From Rhina ancylostomus (taxonomy: Eukaryota), in NCBI GenBank assembly GCA_030265395.1, contig JARFYF010000001.1, forward strand, positions 116,623,182-116,687,181: DNA of 64,000 nucleotides, written 5' to 3'. The position numbers were made by a program, and so were the translations under genes. Shown here one piece after another: positions 47,051 through 64,000 of the stretch; within the stretch, counting starts at the first letter, position 1, and every line of letters starts with the position of its first letter. The notes under the pieces are model-generated. The model saw only the letters and a program-made list of their open reading frames with translations. It had not been told where the DNA came from and made no database searches.

Positions 47051-48619
47051 TATGTATTTTACCTAAGTACTTATATCATTTGAATGTGACTTTGCCTGCA
47101 TGGTGGGGACTGCAGTGAAGTTCAGGAACCCATGTAATTTTTCTTCTTTCTCAGATAACGTCAGTTACGGTTGTTGACCCATACCTTGGTCAACTAACTT
47201 AGGTTAGGTAAATGACCATACAAATCCTAATTAATTCAAATATGCAACTTCACTGCATCAACTTTATCATATCAAATGTAAATATCCATGCAAGTTGTGT
47301 TGACCCTGGGTCAACAATTCCTAAATGCTATTGTTTCTTTTGGACCAGTACACACCCAAGCTACTACTCTTGCAACATTGAAATTGGGGATCTTCTGATG
47401 GCCCAACGAATGACCCTTCTTCTCCCTGCCCCCGACATGGGGGTCTTCCTTCCAATAGTTGGTCTCCCCGGAGTTCTCGCTTGTTAGTCTTCTGAGTTCT
47501 CGCTGCTCTACCTCCACCTCCAAAAACCTTCATTATTATTCTTTTCCCTCATCAGTTCTACTACTTCGATTCTGTTGGCTCAGATTCATTGGTGGCACCA
47601 CCTCACTGCTCTTCTCCCAAACAAGGACTTGCTTCCGATGTCATTTCTTTTGCTTTTTTGCTGGATCAGGCTATTCACACCAATTTTTGCCAGTTCAAGT
47701 CAGACACTGGGCTCAGGCCATTCCAGTTCACGGACACAGACTACTCTTATAAGCCCATGTTGATTCTTCTGCCTTATCAAAGAGCATCCCACAAATAACT
47801 TCTGATTTGGAAATGATCTCTGATTAGCAGATTATTGGTAGGGCCTTCATTATGTCCACTTTCGATTACTTCAATTCAGAAAGTATTAATTTAGAAAATG
47901 ACGGCCTCCACTTCTTCCACCACCTGGCGAGAGCTTAGGCATTTGTTTTATCCATTGTCCTTGACTTGTTNNNNNNNNNNNNNNNNNNNNNNNNNNNNNN
48001 NNNNNNNNNNNNNNNNNNNNNNNNNNNNNNNNNNNNNNNNNNNNNNNNNNNNNNNNNNNNNNNNNNNNNNNNNNNNNNNNNNNNNNNNNNNNNNNNNNNN
48101 NNNNNCTAACTGATGTTGATATAATGATAATAATTTTAAAAAAGTTAGTAAAGCATTATTAATGTGCCACCTAGATATTAAAATAAATTATGTTTGAAAT
48201 GACAATTGTCAATGAAGGTTAGTTAATACAATGTGAATTCTGAAAGTTCCCATGTCAGTATCTATGAAACAGGGTAACAAGCAGATGCATTCTTCCACAT
48301 AATGAAAACTTCATTGTACAAAACAAAATGCAATTAGCATTGCAGCAAACAGTGTTAAATCAAAATGGTTATGAAAGTACAAAAGACATGGAGGAAAAAT
48401 CATTAAGTTATAAAGTATTCATAATTTATATCATAAGTTAGTACATGTAATACTGATAAGTATAATACATGCTTATTATTAAAAGTTACAATTATTGTAT
48501 AATATCAAAATATAATCATTATGGACAAAATTTGGAATGGCGCTTAGCACACAAGCATCTAAGTTGTTTAAGTTGCCATCAAAAGACGCTTAGGAAAATA
48601 CATTATATACTGAGGTTAA

Positions 48620-48941
48620 TGAATGGTTTCACAACAGGTTTGGGTAATTGTCCCTTTTGTGTCTTTCTGGACCTCATCACACAACAAAGACTAGTACTGT
48701 TGGTACTGTAATGGTTGTGGTATCAGTTGTCAACCCCACTGTTGGATTAGGGGCAGGAGGAAGGTCTCGGGACAGCAAAGTAACAGGAATGGAGTTGCCA
48801 GGACTAAGTGCTAATTCATTGTCTTGTATTCATGTCAACATTACACTCACAGTGAAGTTGTATTTAAGTAATAAGCCCTTTGCTATCTAAAGCAGGACCC
48901 ATAAAAAAGTGACTCCCTACAGTTATCCTAACACTTACCAT
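48620..48941 (-). pseudogene. Possible env/glycoprotein N-terminal remnant
   Basis: With one frameshift: MVSVRITVGVTFLWVLL*IAKG (signal-peptide-like), NFT sequon, P/T-rich stretch, then RHKR furin-type motif at 48664-48653; several stops. Confidence 0.35.
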
Positions 48942-48959
48942 CCTTTCCCCTTATTACCG

Positions 48960-49247
48960 TTACCCGATCCCGATTATCCTCAAACCTCTTGCAAAATCTT
49001 GTTCAACTTCCTCATTAATTTGCACAACCATTTCTTCTCCCCCAACCACACAGTCCGTTATTACCATGACATCTGATGGAATCCATATAGACTCTTCTGT
49101 GAATATTGTGAATAGTTCATCCATAACCACCCTCATCTTTATTCTTTGCATTTGTCCAGGTGAATATTCAATTGGCCAGTAGTACACTGTATTGGTCAAC
49201 GTGTAACCTTTAGGAGAATCTTTGACTGTTATCAGGCCACTCAGCAT
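48960..49247 (-). other. Open 95-codon ORF downstream of integrase (candidate accessory gene of the retroviral element)
   Basis: ATG at 49247 directly after a pyrimidine-rich acceptor-like site (ttcctttccag, AG at 49259-49258); no stops to 48960; same strand as pol. Confidence 0.45.
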
Positions 49248-49559
49248 TTTTAAATACCTGGAAAGGAACACCAAGAGCAGTTTCTGTACCTATCCAAGCA
49301 TCTGATATATTTCCTAAATTTAACTCTTCCATCTCCTGCTTTATTCCCACAAGATCTGGGGAGGAACACATTCTCCCATGTGCCTCTCTTTCCCATTGTC
49401 TCTGCTTACACTGCTTGTGGCAATTGCCTAGCTTTAACTTACTCCCTTATAACCTCCAGGTAAAAACAAGAAGTGGCCACTTAGCTTAATGGGGATGCAC
49501 TTGCTTCTTCATCCTCATTACTTCCAGTTGGCTGAAAAACAAGACGAAGAGCATCATCA

Positions 49560-52500
49560 TCCCATTGACAGTGAACCTCAGCTACAAAAGGGCATTGACT
49601 TTCTCCAAAGGGTTTAAGTTGGTTAATATGATACCAACCCAACTTGTCGGGGGCAATCTGTACTCAGTATGCTGATGGACTGACTCTGCCACTAATGTCA
49701 CATGGCCCTACAAATCCTGGAGATTTAAAGGGGCCTGGCTAATGTACAGCGATCATAATCTTCTGCCCTATTTCCAACTCCCTAGATTTTGTTTGCACAT
49801 CAAAATAAGCTTTACTCTGCTTCTTTCGTCCCATATTATGGGCTGCGACATAATGAGCTTCTTTAATGGTGTTGATCAATTGTTGTGCCTATTTGTCCTT
49901 TAAAATACCGTCACACTTGGGCTCAAACAAATCCAGCCAACGAAGAATTCTAACTCTCATTTCTCTTCTGGTCATTAGCTTAAAAGGTGTAAACTTAGTA
50001 GAGGAAGCCATGGAGTTATGAATTATCATAAGGACATATGGTAAGACAGTGACCCACGTGGTCCTGTGCTGTTTGACCATTTTACCTAACATCTTTAAAG
50101 TCCTATTCATCTGTTCAACAATCTCATGGGATTGGGGTTGATAAGGGATGTGGAAGCTCTTTCACCCCAAACAGTTTCATCAGATCTTACATCATCTATG
50201 TGATGNNNNNNNNNNNNNNNNNNNNNNNNNNNNNNNNNNNNNNNNNNNNNNNNNNNNNNNNNNNNNNNNNNNNNNNNNNNNNNNNNNNNNNNNNNNNNNN
50301 NNNNNTGATGAAATGAGAGCCTTGATCTGATTCTAGGCTCCTTGATAATCCCAACAGGTAAAAACCTTCTCAAAGAGAATTCTGGTTGTAACTTTTGCAG
50401 TATTAACTCTAGTTGGGAATGCCTCAATCCATTTGGTGAAAGTATCCACTACCACCAGGATACATTTCAATCCACCAAGAGATGAGCATAAAGGTCCCAC
50501 AAAATCAATCTGCAAGTTAATCCATGGCCCTTCTGCAGGGCGAGTGTGCCTTAAAACTGCTTTCCTAGCCAATCTATCTGGATTATACTGAGCACAAATC
50601 AAACAATTCGTACAATAATGTTCTACATCTTCAGCTGTTCAGTAGTTCTGTCCACTCCTTGATGCCCATAAATGTCATGGTACGAATACATCTGATTCCT
50701 TTCACTTCTGGCACCACAAATCTGTCATTATAAAATACAATCCCATCCTGTATCCGTATTCCTAGATGTTTCCCATATTCTTCAGATTTCTCTCCCCTCT
50801 CTACCTTTGCTAATTCCTGATGCTGTTTCTATACCTGGACTAAATCTATAGGTATACTCTTTGTTAGTTTCTGTGACATCATCCCCTTTATATCCAGACT
50901 CCATTCCATCCCATATCTCACTCCTGATTTAGCTAACTCATCTGCCTTTCTGTTCCCTTCTGGGGATGTTTTTAGGTGACCTTTCACCCTTTTTTATTCC
51001 ATTAGTGTTTCCTCTCACCTTCTCAAATATATACTTCAACAAGGGTGCTGATGGTAAAGGCTTACCGTCTGCTGAAATGTAACCTCTGACTTCTCATAAT
51101 GGTAGGTATTCAGTCAAACTATTACAAACATACATGCTATCTGAGTGTATTATTGCTCCTGAAGGATATCTGCCTGGATGGCTAACAACAAAAGCTATAG
51201 CAGCAAGCTCTTGTGCACTCATTGTCTTGGGTAACTTGATTGTGACACTCTATCTATACTCCTTCCTCATCCTCTACATAAATGCTACATCCTGTAAGCC
51301 TCTCTCCATCCTGACTGATTATGATCCATCAACTAATACTCTTTTACAGGCAAACCTTTTGGCTGCATGACCTTATTCCCCTCTCCCAATTTTAAGATAG
51401 GAGGGCGGNNNNNNNNNNNNNNNNNNNNNNNNNNNNNNNNNNNNNNNNNNNNNNNNNNNNNNNNNNNNNNNNNNNNNNNNNNNNNNNNNNNNNNNNNNNN
51501 NNNNNNNNTTTTGTCCACCTATCACTGCTCTGCTTTTCCCTCCTATATATTGGGCTTCCGCTTTTCCTATCTTCAGTCCTGAAGAGGGGTCCTGATTCAA
51601 AACGTTGACCGCCTGCTTTTCTCCATGGATGCTGCCTAGCATGCTGAGTTCCTCCAGCGTCATTGTGTTTTTCATTAAGATGGGAATGAGTGGTCCGTTC
51701 CTGTGCTATTATCACCTGACACTCTTGGGGTTCTCCTTGATAGGCTAGGTTGTCAGCCAGAATCGTTGTACTATTCACTCTTAACCATGAAATTATGACC
51801 CTGTAATAGCAACGTCAACTGAGCTATTCTATTTTGATTGACTGTCCCAACTTTAATACGTCCATCCAGCAAAAGCTCAATGGGATGTGTTCTTTTAAAA
51901 TAGTTAGCGGATTAAGTCCTACCACATAAGCAAAATGGTTAACTGCCCAAAAGACTGCTACCAGATTTCATTCATGTGTTGTCTATCCCTGTTCTGCTGG
52001 AAGAAACATTGAAGATTCACACATCACTGGCTCCAGTTGGCCATGTGTCTCCTGCAGTAACACAGCTGAAATTCTGTTACTGGTGGCAGTGAATTCCAAA
52101 GATGATGCTCGGAAGGTTTTGAGGCCTTAAGAGCAGATGCTTCTGCCAGGCTAGTTTTAAGATCTGCTACTACCTTAGTATGTTCTGGTTTCCATTCCCA
52201 TAGAACACCTTTAAGAGTTCCATAAGTGGGGATGCCTTAGTGGCAAAGCCATCTATATGGTCCCTACAGTACCCCACCAAACCCAGAAATGACCTCAGCC
52301 CTCTCATGTCAGTGGGGACGGGTAGGTTTGCCACTGCAGCCACACGTTCTTATCAATTTCTCGTCTCCCAGGTGTTATGACTACTCCTACGTAACTGACT
52401 TGCTGTTTCATGATTTGAACCTTTTTCGGGTGAACTTTTAAACCCAACCGCTGTAACAGTTGCAGGANNNNNNNNNNNNNNNNNNNNNNNNNNNNNNNNN

Positions 52501-53300
52501 NNNNNNNNNNNNNNNNNNNNNNNNNNNNNNNNNNNNNNNNNNNNNNNNNNNNNNNNNNNNNNNNNNNACTACTCCTAAGTAACTGACTTGCTGTTTCATG
52601 ATTTGAACCTTTTTAGGGTTAACTTTTAAACCCAACCTCTGTAACAGTTGCAGGAGCTCTTTCAACAATTGGTAGTGCTCCTCCTGGGTCTCTGTAACAG
52701 CAGATCATCCACATATTGAATTAGGCACTGGGGAGCTGAAAAGACTTTCAGCCTATTTGCTAACCATTGATGGAAAATGGAGGACTAGTTATGTATACTG
52801 TTGTCCTTTCCATGTGAAAGCAAATTTGTATTGACGCTCCCTTTCCAGAGGAACAGACCAAAGTCCATTACTTATGTCCAATACTGTGAACCAGTTTGCT
52901 ACAATGTTTTACTTAATCATGGTTTTGGGACTCATGGCTACAGTTATAGGAGTAGCTGTATTCTGTTCCTGACGTTCTGTGTTGAGAGTCTCCAACTTCC
53001 ATCAGGTTTCCAGACTGGACATATTGGTGAATTATTCTTAGATACTATTTTTTGCAGAATTCCCTGTGCTAACAAGCTCTGAACAATTTCTGCGTCTGCC
53101 TGTTTTGGAAATCCATATTGCCTCTGGGATTTTGGATCAGAACCCTGCAGCTACACCTCTCCTTGCATCCTGCCACAGTTATGTTTATGCTTAGTAAATA
53201 CTGCCTGGCAATCCAAAATAATTTGTCTGGCCCATGAGTCCTCTGTCATGTTCTCTGCCTTCACCCACATCTCTCCAACCGTACATATCCTCTCCTCAAT
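49560..53300 (-). mobile_element. Decayed pol of an endogenous retrovirus-like / LTR retroelement (RT - tether RNase H - RNase HI - integrase), 5'-truncated, antisense in host intron
   Basis: Manual minus-strand translation across frameshifts. RT: QRQYGFP, NSPICPVWKPDGSWRL, LDISNGLWSVPL, YKFAFTW, CLIQYVDDLL, GLKVNPKK, LRSFLGLVGYCR. Tether: ISAVLLQ, AVFWAVNHF. RNase HI: VDGS, AQELAAI, HSDSMYV, VKGH, GNRKADELAK. IN: YHDIYGHQG...CTNCLIC, PWINLQIDFVGP, DQGSHF, IVEQMNRTLK, FVGPC, WYHINQLK. No gag or LTR recognised. Confidence 0.9.
51393..51674 (+). mobile_element. Penelope terminal-repeat insertion nested in the retroviral pol, between the two RNase H domains
   Basis: cagtcctgaaga...aaaacgttgacc...gatgctgcc...gagttcctccagc unit; ttaagat present at both junctions; partly in N gap. 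Confidence 0.75.
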
Positions 53301-54557: not shown

Positions 54558-56599
54558 GTACATTTTTATATGTTGATATTTCACATTCTGAAATTCATAC
54601 CATAGCTTGTTGGTAGATTTATTTATTCCTCCACTTCAAGAGCAGTTTAGAGGATAGTAACCCTGCAGCGAGTACCTCTCCTTCTAACTCCCCAAAGCCT
54701 GTCCACCATCTACAAGGCTCGTCAGGAGTGTGATGGAATACTTTCAACTTGCCTGGATAAGTGCAGCTTCAACAACTTAAGAAGCTCAACATACAGGATG
54801 TAGCAGCCTGCTTGATAGGCACCCTATCCATAACCATTCACTCACTCCATCACCAACCAACACACAGTAGCAGAGGTTTGTACCATCTCCAGGGTACAAC
54901 TCACGAGAACTCCTTAAGCAGCAGCTTCCAAACTCGCAACCTCTATCAACCATAAGGGCAAGGGCAGCAAAGCATGGGAAATACTACCACCGGGAGGTTG
55001 CCCTCCAAGCCACACACCACCCTGACTCAGAAATATTTTGCTGTTCCTTCACCATTGCTGGGTCAAAATCCTTGAACTCTTTTTCTAACAGCTCTCCCTA
55101 ATACCTCAAGGACTGTAGTGGTTCAAGAAAGTAGCTCACCACCACCTTCTAAAGGGCAACTAGGGATGGGTAATTAAATGTTGGTTCAGCCTGCAAAGCC
55201 CACATCGCTTGAATGAATATTTAAAAAAAAGGTAAAAGCACACAACAGATTAATCTTTTCTCTTTAAATCAATATATTCTGTATTAATTTGAGATCATCC
55301 TGAAAATTGGTTTTGTCATTGATTCTCAATGTGATTTTTCACCACAGCTGTTCAGTTGCCTTGTCCATGTTACATTCCTCCCAAACTTTGCTCTTAACCA
55401 CACTGATAAATCATCCACCATTGTCTTAATCCTCTCAAAGCCTTCAGTAAGGTACTGTGCACTTCTTAATAAGTTGGTGAAATCTTACCTTTCACCTTGG
55501 GTTGCCAGTTCTGGTTGGACACTCTTGATTTCAGTTAGTATGCCTAGCTAGCTGGGCAATGGTTTTTTGGTCACTTTAAATGTCTTTTCATTCAAAGAAA
55601 GTTTTTAAAAAAAAAACTTAATTTTAATGGCCTTACGATTTTTTCCCACTGATACTCACACAGTCCCTAAGTGATTCATCATTAATTCCCGGATACTGCC
55701 AACAGAATTCCCATCAGAGTCATGTCCATTATCATTGGTTTTGCTCTTATCTGTGCTATTGTTAATGGCTCATGCTGTGACTCATTTTGCATTAATTCTT
55801 AGTTTCCTATTTATTTGACTATCCCATTTTGATGACTCCGAGTTATCTGTCAATCTTATTAAATCTTGCATTGGCCATTCTGATTTACCATTATCAACCA
55901 ACTTCAGTATAGTTGGTTTTATATGTAATCCTATCATTAGCCCAGTAATTGAGTGATTGTATTTTGATCATCTCCAAGCTTATAATGGGGCAACTAACAT
56001 TTTTTTGGCTTTGGTGATGCTTTGTATTTTCTCTTATTAAATTCATCAAAATATTTATTGAAGTGAGTAGATTTCAAATATATGATCATCATTCCCTTCA
56101 TGAGCTTCAGGTCATGATTCACTCCTGGGCCTGTTACCAAACTAGTGCATTTCCAATCTTTCAAATGCCATCAACTCTAATCTACATTATATTTCATTTA
56201 GAAAAATGACTCTGATTAGATTAGTTGTGATCAGGAAGACTGAGTTTTAGAATTATACTTTACAATGTGAAGTCATTTGGCTCATTGGTCTGCACTGGCT
56301 CTTTGATAGTGCTGTCCAAATAGCTCCACCCTCTATCCCCACACACCTTAAAAAATCGTCCTTTTCAAGTATGCATCCAGTTCCCTTTTGAAAGGCACAA
56401 TTTCAGGTAGTACTTTTAAATCAGAACAATTCATTACATAAGAATTTTAATTTCTTACTAGTTTTTGGGCAATTATATTCAGCCAAAGGACAAAGGAAAC
56501 TTTTATTTCTTTTGTGCTCTATTTCTAAATTGCTGTTTAGGAACAGGGAACCATTCGGAATTAGAGACTAATTTCCAGGTTTGGAACTGTTTAAGTGAT

Positions 56600-57260
56600 G
56601 AGAGTTAACATTTCAGGTCAAAGACCCTGTGTCAGAACTGGGAAGGAGAGAAAAGGAGCTCATTAAGCTGCAGTCATGGTGGGGAAGGGATGACATCTCT
56701 GATACAATAAAACCAGGGTGAGATCTCTGATGGGGTAAAACGGGGTGACCATGGAGATGAGCTGTAATTAAGTGAAATGGAACAGTAAGAGGGTGAGAAT
56801 ATAAATAGATGACTGACACAGACAATTTCAGCTAATTTGATTTCTTTCTCTCTGTGTCAGTCATCCATCTGTGATGGTGGCTCAGATTATTTTCTCTCTC
56901 TCGAATTGGAAGGATGTGCCCATCCTGACCTGCTGGGCGTGTCCTCTTCTACATTTTGCAACTCCTATGTTTTTGTCTCATATTCTTATATCTCTGTTCC
57001 CTCTCTCTAACTGCTCCCATTCACCCATTGACCAGATAACCTCGTTTACAGCTTATCCCCATAGTCACTCCACTTTTGCCCCATTAGAGACCCCACCCTA
57101 ACCTGCCCTAGCTTCATTTCTCCTTCCCAGTTGTGCTGAAGGGTCTTTGACCTGAAACATTAACTCTGTTTCACTTCCCACAGATGTAGCCTGATCTGCT
57201 GAGTATTTTCAGTAATTTCTGTTTTTACTTTAGATTTCCAGCTCTTGCAGTTTTTTTATT
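56600..57260. mobile_element. Inverted pair of Penelope terminal repeats
   Basis: gagttaacatttcaggtcaaagaccct (56602-) is the near reverse complement of agggtctttgacctgaaacattaactc (57140-). Confidence 0.7.
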
Positions 57261-57479
57261 TTAATTTAACTAATGCGATTAATTTAAATATCCAATATGG
57301 TTGACAAATTTTATCCAACATGTTGAGAGTTAAGTTCATTATGGTTAAAGACTACTCAGACTCATTTGAGGCATAAATGAAAGATAACTGCTTACTTGAA
57401 ANNNNNNNNNNAATTGATTATTATTTTAGCCATATCTTAGCCTCGTGAGTAATTGGCAAATCAGGTTTTAGCTGACAAG

Positions 57480-57684
57480 AAACTCATACAAAATGCTGGA
57501 GGAACTCAGCAGGTCAGGCAGCATCCATGGAGGGAAATAAACAGTCAACGTTTTGGGTTGAGACCCTTCATCAGGACTGGAAATGAAAGGGCAGAAGCCA
57601 GAATAAAAAGGGAGGGGGAGGAGCACAAGCTGGCAGGTGATAGGTGAGTCCAGGTGAGAGGGGGAAGATTGGTGGGTGGTAGAG
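57480..57684 (-). mobile_element. Young Penelope terminal repeat running into a ~600-N gap
   Basis: aaatgctggaggaactcagcaggtcaggcagcatc...gacccttcatcaggactgg. Confidence 0.75.
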
Positions 57685-58497
57685 NNNNNNNNNNNNNNNN
57701 NNNNNNNNNNNNNNNNNNNNNNNNNNNNNNNNNNNNNNNNNNNNNNNNNNNNNNNNNNNNNNNNNNNNNNNNNNNNNNNNNNNNNNNNNNNNNNNNNNNN
57801 NNNNNNNNNNNNNNNNNNNNNNNNNNNNNNNNNNNNNNNNNNNNNNNNNNNNNNNNNNNNNNNNNNNNNNNNNNNNNNNNNNNNNNNNNNNNNNNNNNNN
57901 NNNNNNNNNNNNNNNNNNNNNNNNNNNNNNNNNNNNNNNNNNNNNNNNNNNNNNNNNNNNNNNNNNNNNNNNNNNNNNNNNNNNNNNNNNNNNNNNNNNN
58001 NNNNNNNNNNNNNNNNNNNNNNNNNNNNNNNNNNNNNNNNNNNNNNNNNNNNNNNNNNNNNNNNNNNNNNNNNNNNNNNNNNNNNNNNNNNNNNNNNNNN
58101 NNNNNNNNNNNNNNNNNNNNNNNNNNNNNNNNNNNNNNNNNNNNNNNNNNNNNNNNNNNNNNNNNNNNNNNNNNNNNNNNNNNNNNNNNNNNNNNNNNNN
58201 NNNNNNNNNNNNNNNNNNNNNNNNNNNNNNNNNNNNNNNNNNNNNNNNNNNNNNNNNNNNNNNNNNNNNNNNNNNNNNNNNNNNNNNNTTGGATTATGTA
58301 AAAATTGTTCTTTTTGAGGAAAATATGCAGCCTTATATTTTTAAATTAAGTTTGTGTATACTTTGGAGTTCATTTTGCAGCTATTGCTACTGCTGTCAAT
58401 TAAGGTTTCAGAGGGAAGTCCCTCTAGTTCTTGGTGCATTATGGCAATTGAAAACATTGAGCCATCAATTCCTTTTGAGCATGTTTCATCTGTGTTT

Positions 58498-58541
58498 CTT
58501 GTTCCTTAGCTCAATTACCCTTGTTCCTTAGCTCATTACCC
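58498..58541. repeat. ~21-nt tandem duplication
   Basis: cttgttccttagctca(a)ttaccc x2. Confidence 0.85.
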
Positions 58542-59220
58542 ACCAAGATAATGAACTTTATGCTTTGCTCAATGAGTTACCAAATATTATTTGACGTTTG
58601 ATCAGGTTATTCCTAAGAAATGTTTATTTAGAAATGTTTAAAGATTCCAGTGCTGAAATAGATTTTACGACTTCCACTTATTAAACTCAGTTTCTACAGA
58701 TGCCTTCAGAGCTGTGGCATGCCTTTTTGCTGGCATTAAACTTTTGTGTAAACCTGAGTATTATTTGTTAAACAGTTTCTAATAGTAACTTCACAATAGT
58801 GTTTTGATAGGTTGAGGAATTTATCCAGTGAGCTGGCTGATCAGGGGTGATTACATTAAATGAAAATTGGTTCCATTTGTGTGAAAGCCACTTTGAGGGC
58901 ATATTTTAGAGCTGGTTTGGATTCTCAACTGGAAAATGATTGTGTGAACTCACTTTTTATGCTGATCACTGCTGTCTTAATTTGTAATTATGTGAAAACA
59001 AAATGTGACAAAGTTGGATTGTATTTACTCTTGAACTTGATATATTTTTAATTTACCAGTATTCTGAATGCAAAGTAAGTAAACTAATGTAATCATTAAC
59101 AAAACTGCACCTGTTATTGATTATATTTACTTTGTATTTCATCATATTGCTTTGGAATTCAAGCTTTATAAATTTAGAACACAATAAAACGTAATTGATC
59201 TTATAATCATTTCTATTTAG

Positions 59221-59354
59221 AATCTGATCGGTTAGAACATCAGCTTGGAAATGCGGTGTCTCTCCGTCAAGACTTTGAAGAATCTACAAACAAAGTAAAA
59301 GCACTTGAAAAGCAGATTAAAGCACTTAAGCAAGAAAAAGAAGAAAATCACAAG
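59221..59354 (+). CDS. CDC42BPB: MRCK beta exon (probable exon 12): SDRLEHQLGNAVSLRQDFEESTNKVKALEKQIKALKQEKEENHK
   Basis: tttag|AA ... AAG|gtaccc; 134 nt; phase matches neighbours; absent from ORF track. Confidence 0.9.
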
Positions 59355-61437
59355 GTACCCAAGTTAGATTATTTTGGCCATCTTCTTATAAAGGCCTTGA
59401 TAGGTAATGAATAAAAGACAGCATGATTGTAAACTCAACCATATTTAATTCATTCTTTGGGATTTGAAATCACTTGCTCCTGAAATCAACAACGTTGTTA
59501 CATAATCTGAAGTGTTACCATGTTCTTATGCTATCCTAATATAAACAATGCAACTCTTTTAAATGTTATGTAAATATAAATTGCCTGAAGTATGCAGGAG
59601 GTCACTCAGCATCTTTTATTTGTGTTGACAATGCTAAATTTTGTGCTTACTAACTTGGTAACACCAAGTTACCAAATGCAACACCAAAAAACGTGAGCAT
59701 TTAGATTGAAAATCCTGAAGCTACCATCAGTGACTCCCATTCTTCCATAGGGAATTACCTTTGGATCAGCAAAGTTAATTTTGGAGAATAGGAAAGAAGC
59801 AATAGTGGCAGTGCCATTCTGCGTCAGAATATCAGTGACTAAATAGGGTCAGAATTTGAAACTGATGGCAGAATGATAGTTGTTGTCAACTCCAAATCCT
59901 TGACACAAAAATCTAGTGATATTCCCATTTTTGACATGTTACCGTCAGCTACAGCTCAAGAGGATTTCTAGCTTCCAGCAGCTATGAAGTCATCAAGTAC
60001 ACTATATATTGCAGGAATTGAGACATTGAGCAATTTTGGCTTTAACTAGTTAATATTTGATGGGTGTTTGAGGACAGGTGAGGAAGTCATTTTAGGCTGA
60101 AAACATTTACTTTTCCATTTTCTCTTCTCTATCCACCTCGCACCAAATCCCACCATTTTGCACCACAATCATACCCACAACTACTCAAACAACATTTGGG
60201 GGACAGTGCTCAAACCTTTTAATCAGTGTGTTATATACTACATGCTTATATATAGCAAAAGAAATTTGAATATTTGTTTATTATTATGTTGGGCCACAAA
60301 TTGTTGCAGGAGTGAATTTAATGGCTTTAATATTCTGGATGTTCAGATTTTAGAATTTGATGGGTTGCTGAAAGTGCAAGCTGAAAATCCTTCAGCATAG
60401 TAAAAGGGCATCTGGGATTGAAGTGAATGGATCAAGCAACTATATTCCTCCTTAATCAAACAAATTGAACATTGAAAATAACAACAGAAGGAATGAGAAG
60501 GAAATGAAAGTTAGAATGGCTATATCGATGCAAAATCAAATGCAGAAGAGGGCAATAAAGATCAGATTGAGAGAAGAAGTAAGAAGAGATCAATAGTAAA
60601 AGTATCAGAACACTTTTAAAACCTTGAATTAAAAAAATCAGCAACAAAAAACTGAAAAAAAAAAGGAACTGCAGCCTTGCAGTAGTTAATTTCCAGTGCC
60701 ATTGAACTTGTAGGCAGTATTCAACTTTATCTTGTGAGTGTGGCTATATCTATTTCTTAGGTACAGCAACTTCAACATTGGTCAAGCCAATGATATGTCA
60801 TTTTTGTAAATCTAACAGTGGAACACAGCAAGTCTGACTGCAATGTTTTGATTATTCAGTTTACCTGCGTGCATGGATCTCACCTGAAGTAAATTGTGGT
60901 CCAGTGATTTTAAAATTTCTATGACATACAATTTTAGTACTATGAAAGTTCCTTGTATACAGTGCAAAACATAAATTCCACATTCTAATGCCACTATTTT
61001 AAAAAAAAATTTCTTTAGATAAATTTGAGTTACTGTTAGCTCACCTCCTGAACCTTGTGTCATTAAGTTTTAGATCTGTAATTTCTAAAAGCTTTAAAAA
61101 CTGCGGGTGTAATATCATCTCAATTTAATAGTTTCACACCATTAGTGTCGCATACAGATTCATCTTTCTGTCAAGCTGGGTTTTCAAAGAGCCTCGTAAA
61201 TCTTTGAACTTAAAGTGTTATGAAGGGTGTATTGCTTTTGCCTGGTATAAGGAGTTAATTGCCCTGTATCTGATGTGTGCTTTGACATTAGACTTAATGT
61301 AGCCTACAGTTTTATTTGGCTGTTAGCTTAGCTTGGTGTCTGTGTGATAATGGCATTTTAAGTTGTAGTAAATTATTAACATTATACAAGCTCGTGTTTT
61401 TTTAATGAAATGTCTGTACAATCTATAATTTTAATAG

Positions 61438-61680
61438 CAACTTGTTGAAACCCTTGAAAGACAAAAATCCCAAACTAAGGAATTAAAGGATGCACATCAG
61501 CAGAGGAAGATTGCAATGCAAGAGTTCTCTGAACTCAATGAAAGGATGGCTGAGTTGCGCTCTCAGAAACAGAAGTTGTCCCGCCACCTCCGTGACAAAG
61601 AAGAAGAGTTAGAAATAGCTATGCAGAAGATTGACACGATGCGTCAAGACATCCGAAAAGCAGAAAGGATAAGAAAGGAG
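61438..61680 (+). CDS. CDC42BPB: MRCK beta exon (probable exon 13): [57 protein letters not shown]...RIRKE
   Basis: aatag|CAA ... GAG|gtaaat; 243 nt. Confidence 0.94.
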
Positions 61681-61925
61681 GTAAATAATTATCAAATAAT
61701 TAACCAGGAGAATATAATCTTGACCCCAGTTTGGGGGCAGAAACTGGATACAGCATAGCAAGTAATAATTTCATGAATTAATTTGCCATATATTTCTCAC
61801 TGCAAGTTCCTCTGTGTTCTTTTCCATTGTGCTTCTTTTTAGTGACCTCATTGTATCTGTATTGCTCCATTCTGATTTATATATTTCCTTTTTAATTCAA
61901 TATGCCAGATGAAGTTCCACTTACT

Positions 61926-62160
61926 GGAAATGGATAGTTGATGTTTTGGGTTGAGACCCTTCCTCAGGACTGGAAAGTAAGTGGGCAGATACCAAGTTCT
62001 TGCCTCACGCCCTTTGCCCCACCCTTTTATACTGGCCATCTGCCCTCTTTCTTTCCAGTCCTGATATTTTGGGTTGAGACCCTTCCTCAACTATCCATTT
62101 CCCTCCATAGATGCTGCTTGACCTGCTGAGCTCCTCCAGCATTTTGTGTGTCGCTCTAGC
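61926..62160. mobile_element. Inverted Penelope repeat pair with internal micro-inversion
   Basis: Arms 61926-61977 and 62051-62102 are reverse complements except for a 22-nt block in direct orientation. Confidence 0.75.
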
Positions 62161-62544
62161 TTCTCTAATCTAATCTTGCAATGGAACCATTTTAGAAAAT
62201 CTTGTGAGCATCCTGACAAGGACCTTGTTATCCTTGACCAGAGCAAGCATAACTTCTATGATTCTCCACTTATGTAACTTGAGATCCATGTTTTACAAAC
62301 TACACTTAATATGCCCTTCAAAGATCTGTGCACCTGACCTCCCAGCTCCCTGTGTTCCTCTTTAAAACTATGCCATTAAATCTATATTGCCTGTCCCCAA
62401 ATCTTCTCAGTGTTAAATTTCATTATTCCACTTTGGAATTTGTCTGTCCATTCTGCTAGCTTTTCTTACCCAGTTGCAGCTAATTGGTATTATCCTGTTT
62501 GACAATCTTGCAAGTTTGATATAATTGGCAAATTTTAGACTTTT

Positions 62545-63340
62545 AATCCAATCTTCAGGTCATAGGTGGGAGAAAAAAATCACCCATTGCCTTAGCCTCC
62601 ACAGCCGTCCTTGTCAATGAATTCCACAGATTCACTATCCTCTCATTGAAGACATTCCTCCTCATCTCAGTTTTAAAGGGACGTCCCTTCATTCTGAGGG
62701 TATGCCCCTGAATCCTAGACTCTTCTACTAATGGAAACATCCGTTCCATGTCCACCCTATCCAAGCCTTTCTGTATTTAGTAGGTTTCAATGATATTGCC
62801 TCTCATCCTTCTGAATTCCATCAAGTACAGGCCCAGAGCCATCGAACGCTCCATATACATTAAGCCTAGGATCTTTCTTCTGAGCATTCTCTGGATCCAC
62901 TCCAGGGCCAGCACATCTTCCCTTGGATATTGGATTCAAAATTGCTCACAGTATTCCAAATGCGGTCTGACCAATGCCTCATAAAGCCTCTGCAGGACAT
63001 CCTTTTATATACTAGTCCTCTCAAAATGAATGCTAACATTGCACTTGCCTTCCTTACTACTGGCTCAGCTTGCACCTGAATCCTGAACTAGAGTTCCCAA
63101 GTCCCTTTGTACCTCCGATTTCTGAATTCTCTCCCCACACCTTTATTCTTCCTACCAAAGTGCATAACCCCTTACTTCCCTACACTGTATTTCATCTGCC
63201 ACTTCTTTACCCGCTCTCCCAACCTGTCCAAGTCCTCCTGCAGATTCCCTGCCTCTGCAACACTACCTGTGTCTCCACCTGTCTTGGTATTGTCTGCAGA
63301 CTTGGCCACAATGCCATCAGTTCCTTTATCCAGATCACCC
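62545..63340 (-). mobile_element. Relatively young CR1 3' fragment
   Basis: Minus ORFs VVRKASAMLAFILRG and ERMFPLVEESRIQGHTLRMKGRPFKTEMRRNVF..RIVNLWNSL. Confidence 0.9.
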
Positions 63341-63769
63341 ATCTTTCATTAAACTTTTATTCTGCTTTACCTGGCTGCATCCCTTCTCATCTCAAAGAGG
63401 TAGGCCCATCTCCACTTCAGAAGTTCTGTTTTAGATTGTTTCTTGCCCCTGTCCATCACTAATCTAATGATGCAGGGATAAATGTTATTCAAGGGATCTC
63501 CCATAAAATCATATCTTGTGTGGTTCACAGCCCACCTTATTCCTCCAGAATCAAATCCAGCAATGCCTCATTCCTAGCTGTGCTGGCAATGTTCTGCTCA
63601 AGGAGGTTTTCCTGAAAACATTTCAGATGTTTTTATTCCATTATTATCTCAATTAATATTTGGATAATTGAAGATCTCAATATCACTACTTGCACATCTC
63701 TGTAAATTACCTGGAGATTTGCTATTGTCTTCTCACCAATCAGAAATCTGTTGAATGCTTGTGATCATG

Positions 63770-64000
63770 AAAGCATCGGGGTTATCAAGAAAGCACATCA
63801 ATGTATGTACTTTTTCAGGCATCTGAGAAAATTTGGCTTGTGCACGAGGATTCTCTTGACCTTCTCACTATAGAAAGTATCCTGATGGGCTGCTTTTCAG
63901 CCTGGTATGGTAACTGCTCTGCTCTGGACCATCAGGACCTGCACAGTGTGGTAAACACTGCCCTGTCCTTCACAGGCTTATCACATCCTTTCATCCTGTC
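63770..64000 (+). mobile_element. Rex1/Babar-clade LINE RT C-terminal fragment (runs off window)
   Basis: IKKAHQCMYFFRHLRKFGL...TIESILMGCFSAWYGNCSALD motif typical of the Rex1/Babar clade. Confidence 0.75.

Follow-up and report, generated by a model that had tools for sequence, protein, structure and literature searches.

Does a retroelement that encodes two RNase H folds in a cartilaginous-fish genome belong to the lokiretroviruses (Loki), or to another deep branch of the retroviruses? This question is raised by a 64,000-nucleotide stretch of Rhina ancylostomus DNA (GenBank assembly GCA_030265395.1, contig JARFYF010000001.1, positions 116,623,182 to 116,687,181), hereafter the window, to which all window coordinates refer and in which the pol gene of the element is read on the minus strand. 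An initial annotation had taken the element for a Loki-like or deep-branching endogenous retrovirus (ERV) and had considered that it might extend the host range of Loki. Our sequence comparisons indicate that the element is very probably a canonical retrovirus and not a member of Loki, and that its family most likely belongs to the assemblage related to snakehead retrovirus (SnRV), that is, clade Huo within class III. The element represents a new family of an already known group, and the window copy is a dead, 5'-truncated member of this multi-copy ERV family.

The placement is carried by the reverse transcriptase (RT), on which Loki is defined (PMC7947760, Wang and Han 2021; here and below, published statements are taken from the accessible parts of the papers cited). 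In a tree of 63 RT rows, the window copy and a sister family described below fell inside the canonical retroviruses with support of 100/98, and the window copy with both families did so in a tree of 43 rows (100/99). They held this position in a 50-row tree to which foamy, beta-type, and lentiviral rows were added (100/99), and in a fourth tree as well (98). The foamy, beta-type, and lentiviral labels of these viral contigs are presumed from motifs. Loki was recovered as a separate sister outside the canonical retroviruses (100/99-100), and the trees of the tether (93/85) and of RT, tether, and integrase (IN) combined (100) agree with the RT placement. Moreover, the approximately unbiased (AU) test on RT rejects a union of the window group with Loki (p = 0.020 and 0.025). 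RT identity to Loki is 33-36%, compared with 59-81% among the Loki rows themselves, while it reaches 45% to SnRV, the closest named virus, and 49-53% to frog and coelacanth ERVs annotated as "NYNRIN-like". The RT motif of the family, (L/M)PQGFHNSP, is of the retroviral type, whereas the published Loki rows and those used here carry PFGY(S/A)NSP, a difference taken here as diagnostic; PQGFH was found in three of the five family copies scanned and PFGY in none, the LPQG segment being deleted in the window copy. In the 50-row tree, the RT sits outside the class I, class II, ERV-L, and foamy clades, and a 15-row RT group unites elements of sharks and rays, frogs, coelacanth, and turtles (85/89).

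About 340 proteins were available, and the rows of these trees were hand-picked among them so that the groups were covered. SnRV is represented by P0027, which by eye matches the SnRV row of the PMC7947760 supplement and whose match to a viral record of 10,688 bases is at 99%. P0019 was assigned to Loki-Aro by eye, and P0221, which matches the preceding row of that supplement, was taken as the lamprey Loki; for P0012, P0013, P0273, and P0277 the Loki label follows from motifs. The Env carried by L111 and L112 resembles the published Loki Env, with weak PF00523 matches.

The broken pol occupies 49616-53298 on the minus strand, and each motif named in the initial annotation for the RT, the tether, the second RNase H, and an HHCC-DDE integrase was recovered at its place, with Pfam support. 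The end of the protease-RT linker and the RT span 52150..53298 (RVT_1, 4.7e-11) with frameshifts and stops, and the YVDD motif reads QYVDDLL at 52698-52718. Within the RT lies an assembly gap (52468..52567) flanked on either side by the same ~90 bases; sister copies are continuous across the site, and this duplication is an assembly artefact without biological meaning. The tether, a first RNase H fold of Gypsy-like type, follows at 51734..52140 (minus strand), with ISAVLLQ at 52052-52072, PAEQG at 51986-52000, and AVFWAVNHF at 51932-51958. It matches the Gypsy-type models RT_RNaseH (PF17917, 2.2e-9) and RT_RNaseH_2 (PF17919, 4.7e-8), which together with RVT_1 were the matches above cut-off when three frames of the window copy were searched. 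Alignment with Gypsy, Loki, and SnRV rows shows that the aspartates found in TDAS and TDH of Gypsy are missing from it, just as from the tethers of Loki and retroviruses, which bears out the reading of a Gypsy-like tether joined to an RNase H.

The second RNase H, of the RNase HI type, spans 50898..51339 on the minus strand and retains the D-E-D-H-D positions, with LVDGS at 51322-51336, AQELAA at 51199-51216, HSDS at 51136-51147, KGH at 50976-50984, and ADELAK at 50928-50945. The integrase, with an HHCC motif, a D-D-E triad, and a GPY/F-type C terminus, lies at 49616..50700 (minus strand) and is interrupted by an N gap at 50206-50305; its motifs are YHDIYGH (50662-50682), CTNCLIC (50594-50614), LQIDFVG (50495-50515), ESDQG (50319-50333), EIVEQMN (50105-50125), and FVGPCD (49697-49714). 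In the decayed window copy, RNase_H (PF00075, 0.0023) and rve (0.0051) stay below cut-off. However, the natural open frame of the sister copy L011 gives RNase_H at 4.4e-12, Integrase_H2C2 at 8.9e-16, and rve at 8.3e-11, so both RNase H folds that had been proposed are real.

Frame-aware alignment counted 23 breaks across the four pol domains, two of them at N gaps. Between the tether and the second RNase H, a later repeat insertion occupies 51402..51675, with an N gap at 51409-51508 and ATCTTAA on both sides. This insert, suspected earlier, is confirmed: it is missing from all four sister copies that span the site (L011, L013, L019, and L020) and is a high-copy repeat, with 1979 candidates in the genome and 39 of the 40 scored lying elsewhere at 92-94% identity.

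The element continues past the interval first annotated (DNA homology extends to 47172). An env remnant, inferred from DNA homology and reading frames, lies at 48500..49500 on the minus strand, its 5' part being common to sister copies, and is followed by the 3' long terminal repeat (LTR) at 47172..47970 (minus strand). The first ~70-100 bases of this LTR fall inside an N gap (47971-48105), and it ends in ...GGTCAACA. Gag, protease, and the 5' LTR are absent from the window copy, and homology to fuller copies ends at 53298. Such fuller copies, with LTRs, a tract like a primer-binding site, and gag, were sought in this genome and found. Matches to the 3' LTR lie at either end of C7:54575935-54586160 and precede pol in L020 and L041, and 61 LTR matches were obtained among the best 40 of 371 candidates scored with the last 800 bases as query. 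Likewise, an integrase query found several genome loci at 70-84% identity (best 150 of 1031 candidates scored), with sister copies of the integrase at 75-80%. The copy at C7:54575935-54586160 has both LTRs, bounded by TG...CA and 871 and 895 bases long, with a Kimura two-parameter distance of 0.157 between them, and its flanks TTCAG/CTCAG represent a 4-5 base target duplication. A TGG tract resembling a primer-binding site follows its 5' LTR, a polypurine tract precedes its 3' LTR, and it carries gag with a zinc knuckle in addition to pol. This copy and others give the family layout LTR-gag-pro-pol-env-LTR, and the family is old. For the primer tRNA, the search returned no direct match, 17 loose matches against 8 in the control, and no tRNA in 12 loci.

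A segment of env with a basic (furin) cleavage site and a hydrophobic stretch resembling a fusion peptide is retained in three of seven family copies (L048, L049, and L050), which score 93, 90, and 53 against a profile built from the sister-family Env, compared with 17-28 for shuffled sequences; the window copy and three others, which have lost this segment, score at background. At one further locus, L047 (G000:C94:40163500-40170500), two family LTRs are separated by ~5 kb in which no pol match occurs, and the locus is possibly an internally deleted or non-autonomous copy. In the window itself, the interval 55250-56200 (minus strand) reads like decayed coding sequence. It appeared gag-like by eye and was rejected as gag, being single-copy with no Pfam, local, or genome match. 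Elsewhere in the window (1-47000 and 57000-64000), local searches matched repeat fragments only, and no host exon was recognised, although none was specifically sought.

The group has another family in this genome, younger than the first and represented by L017 (G000:C1461), L016 (C66:16695101-16697942), L027, L024, L025, L040, and C12355. L017 has a 996-codon open pol frame with all domains, and in this family the protease lies in frame upstream of pol and Env pieces with an RVKR site occur in long open frames. The L017 Pol best matches one protein at 68% and a protein of the sevengill shark Heptranchias at 67%; proteins of frogs, coelacanth, and Xenopus follow at 41-43% over the full length, and the automatic name "protein NYNRIN-like" is borne by several of these matches. 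Near-identical DNA was found in six organisms and one fish-metagenome run, none of the sequencing runs listed being from RNA. The cartilaginous-fish host proposed in the initial annotation is supported by an acetylcholinesterase exon of the genome, which scores 946 bits on entries such as 1GQR/1EA5 (Torpedo), to which it is about 85% identical as counted by eye, compared with 772 on 4QWW (snake) and 672 on 4EY4/1MAA (human and mouse), in a comparison that included no teleost sequence. Taken with the sevengill-shark match, this points to a likely elasmobranch host.

These longer Env frames made it possible to ask what type of envelope the group carries, an Env related to the F protein of the Mononegavirales (PF00523), of paramyxovirus type, having been thought to mark Loki. 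The N-terminal part of the sister-family Env aligns with Loki Env at scores of 134 and 121, reached by 0 and 1 of 300 shuffles, and the C-terminal part at 114 and 112, reached by none of 300; the two halves align collinearly with Loki Env. Beta-type and foamy Env controls gave no alignment (34-245 of 300 shuffles as high). For SnRV Env, the alignment with Loki Env was equalled by 3 and 0 of 300 shuffles, and that with the N-terminal part of the sister-family Env (score 112) by 0 of 500. The Loki Env rows L111 and L112 match PF00523 weakly, and an Atlas search with Env placed a PF00523 cluster first (0.94, with low recognition), while glycoprotein families with no relation to it came up when the same search was run with the C-terminal piece. 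An F-type Env is therefore likely for these families on the strength of sequence alignment. For the window's own family it is likely in two steps, through the remnant that matches the sister-family Env, as the short remnant did not reach Loki Env directly in the shuffle comparison. Because SnRV Env and the sister-family Env both align with Loki Env above shuffles, an F-type Env is probably not a hallmark of Loki and does not decide Loki membership; it may be ancestral.

Other approaches to Env returned less. The Env hidden Markov model did not find SnRV Env, hhalign to SnRV Env gave 5%, and nothing aligned when the Loki gene model P0019, which has gaps, was compared. The predicted folds of two Env pieces were poor (pLDDT 32 and 46) and unusable, and with the better of them Foldseek returned nothing at E<=0.001 from the two libraries. 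A search of the accessible literature on the SnRV envelope and fusion, with Repbase and subscription papers outside it, found no statement of the SnRV Env type. The N-terminal part of Env (L016:1181-2842; P0290) shows a weak immunoglobulin (Ig)-domain match (Ig_3, E 0.094 and 0.0027) that stays below cut-off. The same F-like Env is carried by other decayed ERVs, at L033 (C2:66906000-66915900), L034, L035, L036, L037, L038, and L039. The RT of L033 and L034 resembles, by eye, another canonical lineage (P0022/P0086-like), and since their RT differs, F-like Env spans several RT lineages in one genome.

Several observations weigh against a canonical placement with an F-type Env and have to be set beside the alternatives. 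The p-values of the AU tests, obtained under LG+G4, are modest, and the trees were built without Odin, fish foamy-like ERVs, alpha and delta viruses, NYNRIN, and CmiERV-I. Branching at the base of the canonical retroviruses is not resolved: SnRV, ERV-L plus foamy, class I, class II, and the 15-row group stand side by side. A union of the group with SnRV passes the AU test on RT (p = 0.23) without gaining support there and is rejected on IN (p = 0.001), so "SnRV-like" may be a grade. Between the C-terminal Env piece of the sister family and SnRV Env there is no alignment above chance (73 of 500 shuffles as high), no F protein in PDB or Pfam was matched by Env profiles, and shuffles incompletely control for heptad repeats. 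Finally, the closeness to Loki first read from pol stands in part: the IN and RNase H trees put Loki among or beside the group, weakly (90/92 and 72/88), whereas RT speaks against it.

That the element is a lokiretrovirus, the first in cartilaginous fishes, would accord with tether profile scores that are Loki-like (119-135, against 52 for SnRV), with IN profile scores of 300-318 against 155 for SnRV, with an AU test that does not reject a union of IN with Loki (p = 0.31), and with the alignment between sister-family and Loki Env. The last point loses its force as SnRV Env aligns with Loki Env too, and the RT lies outside Loki in all trees, with the union rejected and PQGFH in place of PFGY. 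In this genome, moreover, the best 150 of 3089 candidates scored with a Loki RT query gave nothing above 38% identity, and no match was obtained with Loki Env as query; we regard a Loki identity as highly improbable. Loki was indeed unreported from chondrichthyans, as the initial annotation had supposed, with none in the six genomes of Fig. S1 in PMC7947760, and the lokiretrovirus papers listed announced no cartilaginous host in titles or abstract openings, subscription papers lying outside the search. The suggested extension of the Loki host range nevertheless falls, since the element is not Loki and SnRV-related ERVs were already published from elephant shark (PMC4422223, Han 2015). A recombinant origin, either a canonical RT and tether joined to RNase H, IN, and env derived from Loki, or a donation of IN by this group to Loki (and to mammalian NYNRIN/CGIN1), deserves more weight, although we still consider it rather unlikely. 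One IN tree nests Loki beside frog and coelacanth members (94/89; 88/48 in another), the RNase H tree groups Loki with these elements weakly, and Loki is inferred to have replaced its IN with one related to CGIN1 (PMC7947760). The top protein matches carry the automatic name "protein NYNRIN-like", and together with the IN trees they put the integrase near a Loki/"NYNRIN-like" type. The canonical clade defined on RT, with Loki left out, is nevertheless compatible with IN (AU p = 0.32); a mosaic is therefore not shown, shared slow evolution explains the likeness of IN, and a proven RT/IN mosaic was dropped after this test. A Ty3/Gypsy retrotransposon with an extra RNase H would explain the Gypsy-type Pfam matches of the first fold and the best PDB match of the sister Pol, which is Ty3, but the element is separated from 7-19 Gypsy rows at 100/98-100 in the RT, tether, and IN trees and its family has env remnants. 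A Gypsy origin has next to no probability, and the alternative of a deep-branching ERV offered in the initial annotation holds.

For a canonical retrovirus of this kind, the history might run as follows. Cell entry of the ancestor would have relied on a class I fusion Env of the F type. By analogy with general retrovirus biology, reverse transcription would be primed by a tRNA, RNA would be removed by the second RNase H with the first fold, the tether, serving as a connector, and integration would be carried out by the DDE integrase. Later the family probably spread inside the germ line or with a borrowed Env, because none of the seven copies examined keeps more than part of env. The window copy would then have lost its 5' half, taken the repeat insertion, and decayed; it is inert, and no working protein is possible. 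More tentatively, and with somewhat less than even confidence, the ERVs of sharks and rays, frogs, coelacanth, and turtles may have split off early among the true retroviruses and, evolving slowly, have retained an ancestral Gypsy-like tether, a Loki/CGIN1-type integrase, and an F-type Env. If so, F-type Env would be ancestral to Loki and canonical retroviruses alike and still present in SnRV, gamma-type Env would be a later replacement, and this branch would be the likely source of mammalian NYNRIN. The question left by PMC7947760, where four scenarios for the origin of Loki Env are kept open, would then be answered. If the Env homology of Loki, SnRV, and this group holds, the link to paramyxovirus F is no peculiarity of Loki, and the origin of the retroviral envelope becomes testable on already public genomes. 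The locus itself is minor, a single degraded member of an ERV group whose presence in cartilaginous fishes had been established before.

Among known systems, lineage I of CmiERV from elephant shark clusters with SnRV (PMC4422223); SnRV-like ERVs were described by Hayward 2015 (via PMC4977317), and clade Huo was defined across all major vertebrate lineages (PMC6001957, Xu 2018). Judged by eye from the published DNA, CmiERV-I shares with the window group a cartilaginous-fish host, the PQGFHNSP RT motif, a Gypsy-like tether, and the integrase motif GPW-x-x-IQIDFIGP...KWIEAF, and P0158, a stand-in protein for CmiERV-I, falls in the same weakly supported group (80). The families nevertheless differ: the RT of the window family is 40% identical to that stand-in, and the CmiERV-I Env, judged by eye, bears CX6CC and an immunosuppressive motif of the gamma type, in contrast to the F-like Env of the two families in this genome. 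The ERV Pols automatically named "protein NYNRIN-like" from frogs, coelacanth, sevengill shark, and turtles belong to the same 15-row RT group; a search for NYNRIN among longer proteins found none by name among 50 matches.

SnRV resembles the window group in its RT (45%), YVDD motif, and an Env that aligns with the sister-family Env. However, its integrase groups with the ERV-L type, its tether is more degenerate than that of the window family, and its Pol carries a long insert (~180 residues) between RNase H and integrase. This insert (P0027 / L066) contains two H-x-S/T motifs by eye, which might be reminiscent of a 2H phosphoesterase. A literature search for a link between ERV4 and snakehead found none, Repbase and subscription papers lying outside it.

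Odin retrotransposons, with dual RNase H, no env, and a position as sister to Loki, are not matched, as the family has env remnants and an RT apart from Loki. Loki itself shares with the window group a tether plus RNase H, a Gypsy-like tether, and a similar integrase, and its F-type Env has an RxKR site, as does the Env of the sister family, which is likely of the same type. A tether plus RNase H is common to all retroviruses and is therefore not diagnostic of Loki. The two differ in RT clade and RT motif; no smc gene was seen in the window group, and the sister-family Env has a long N-terminal part with the weak Ig-like match, which the Loki Env rows do not have. Tether, integrase, and Env thus look Loki-like while the RT does not, a trap that the RT placement corrects.

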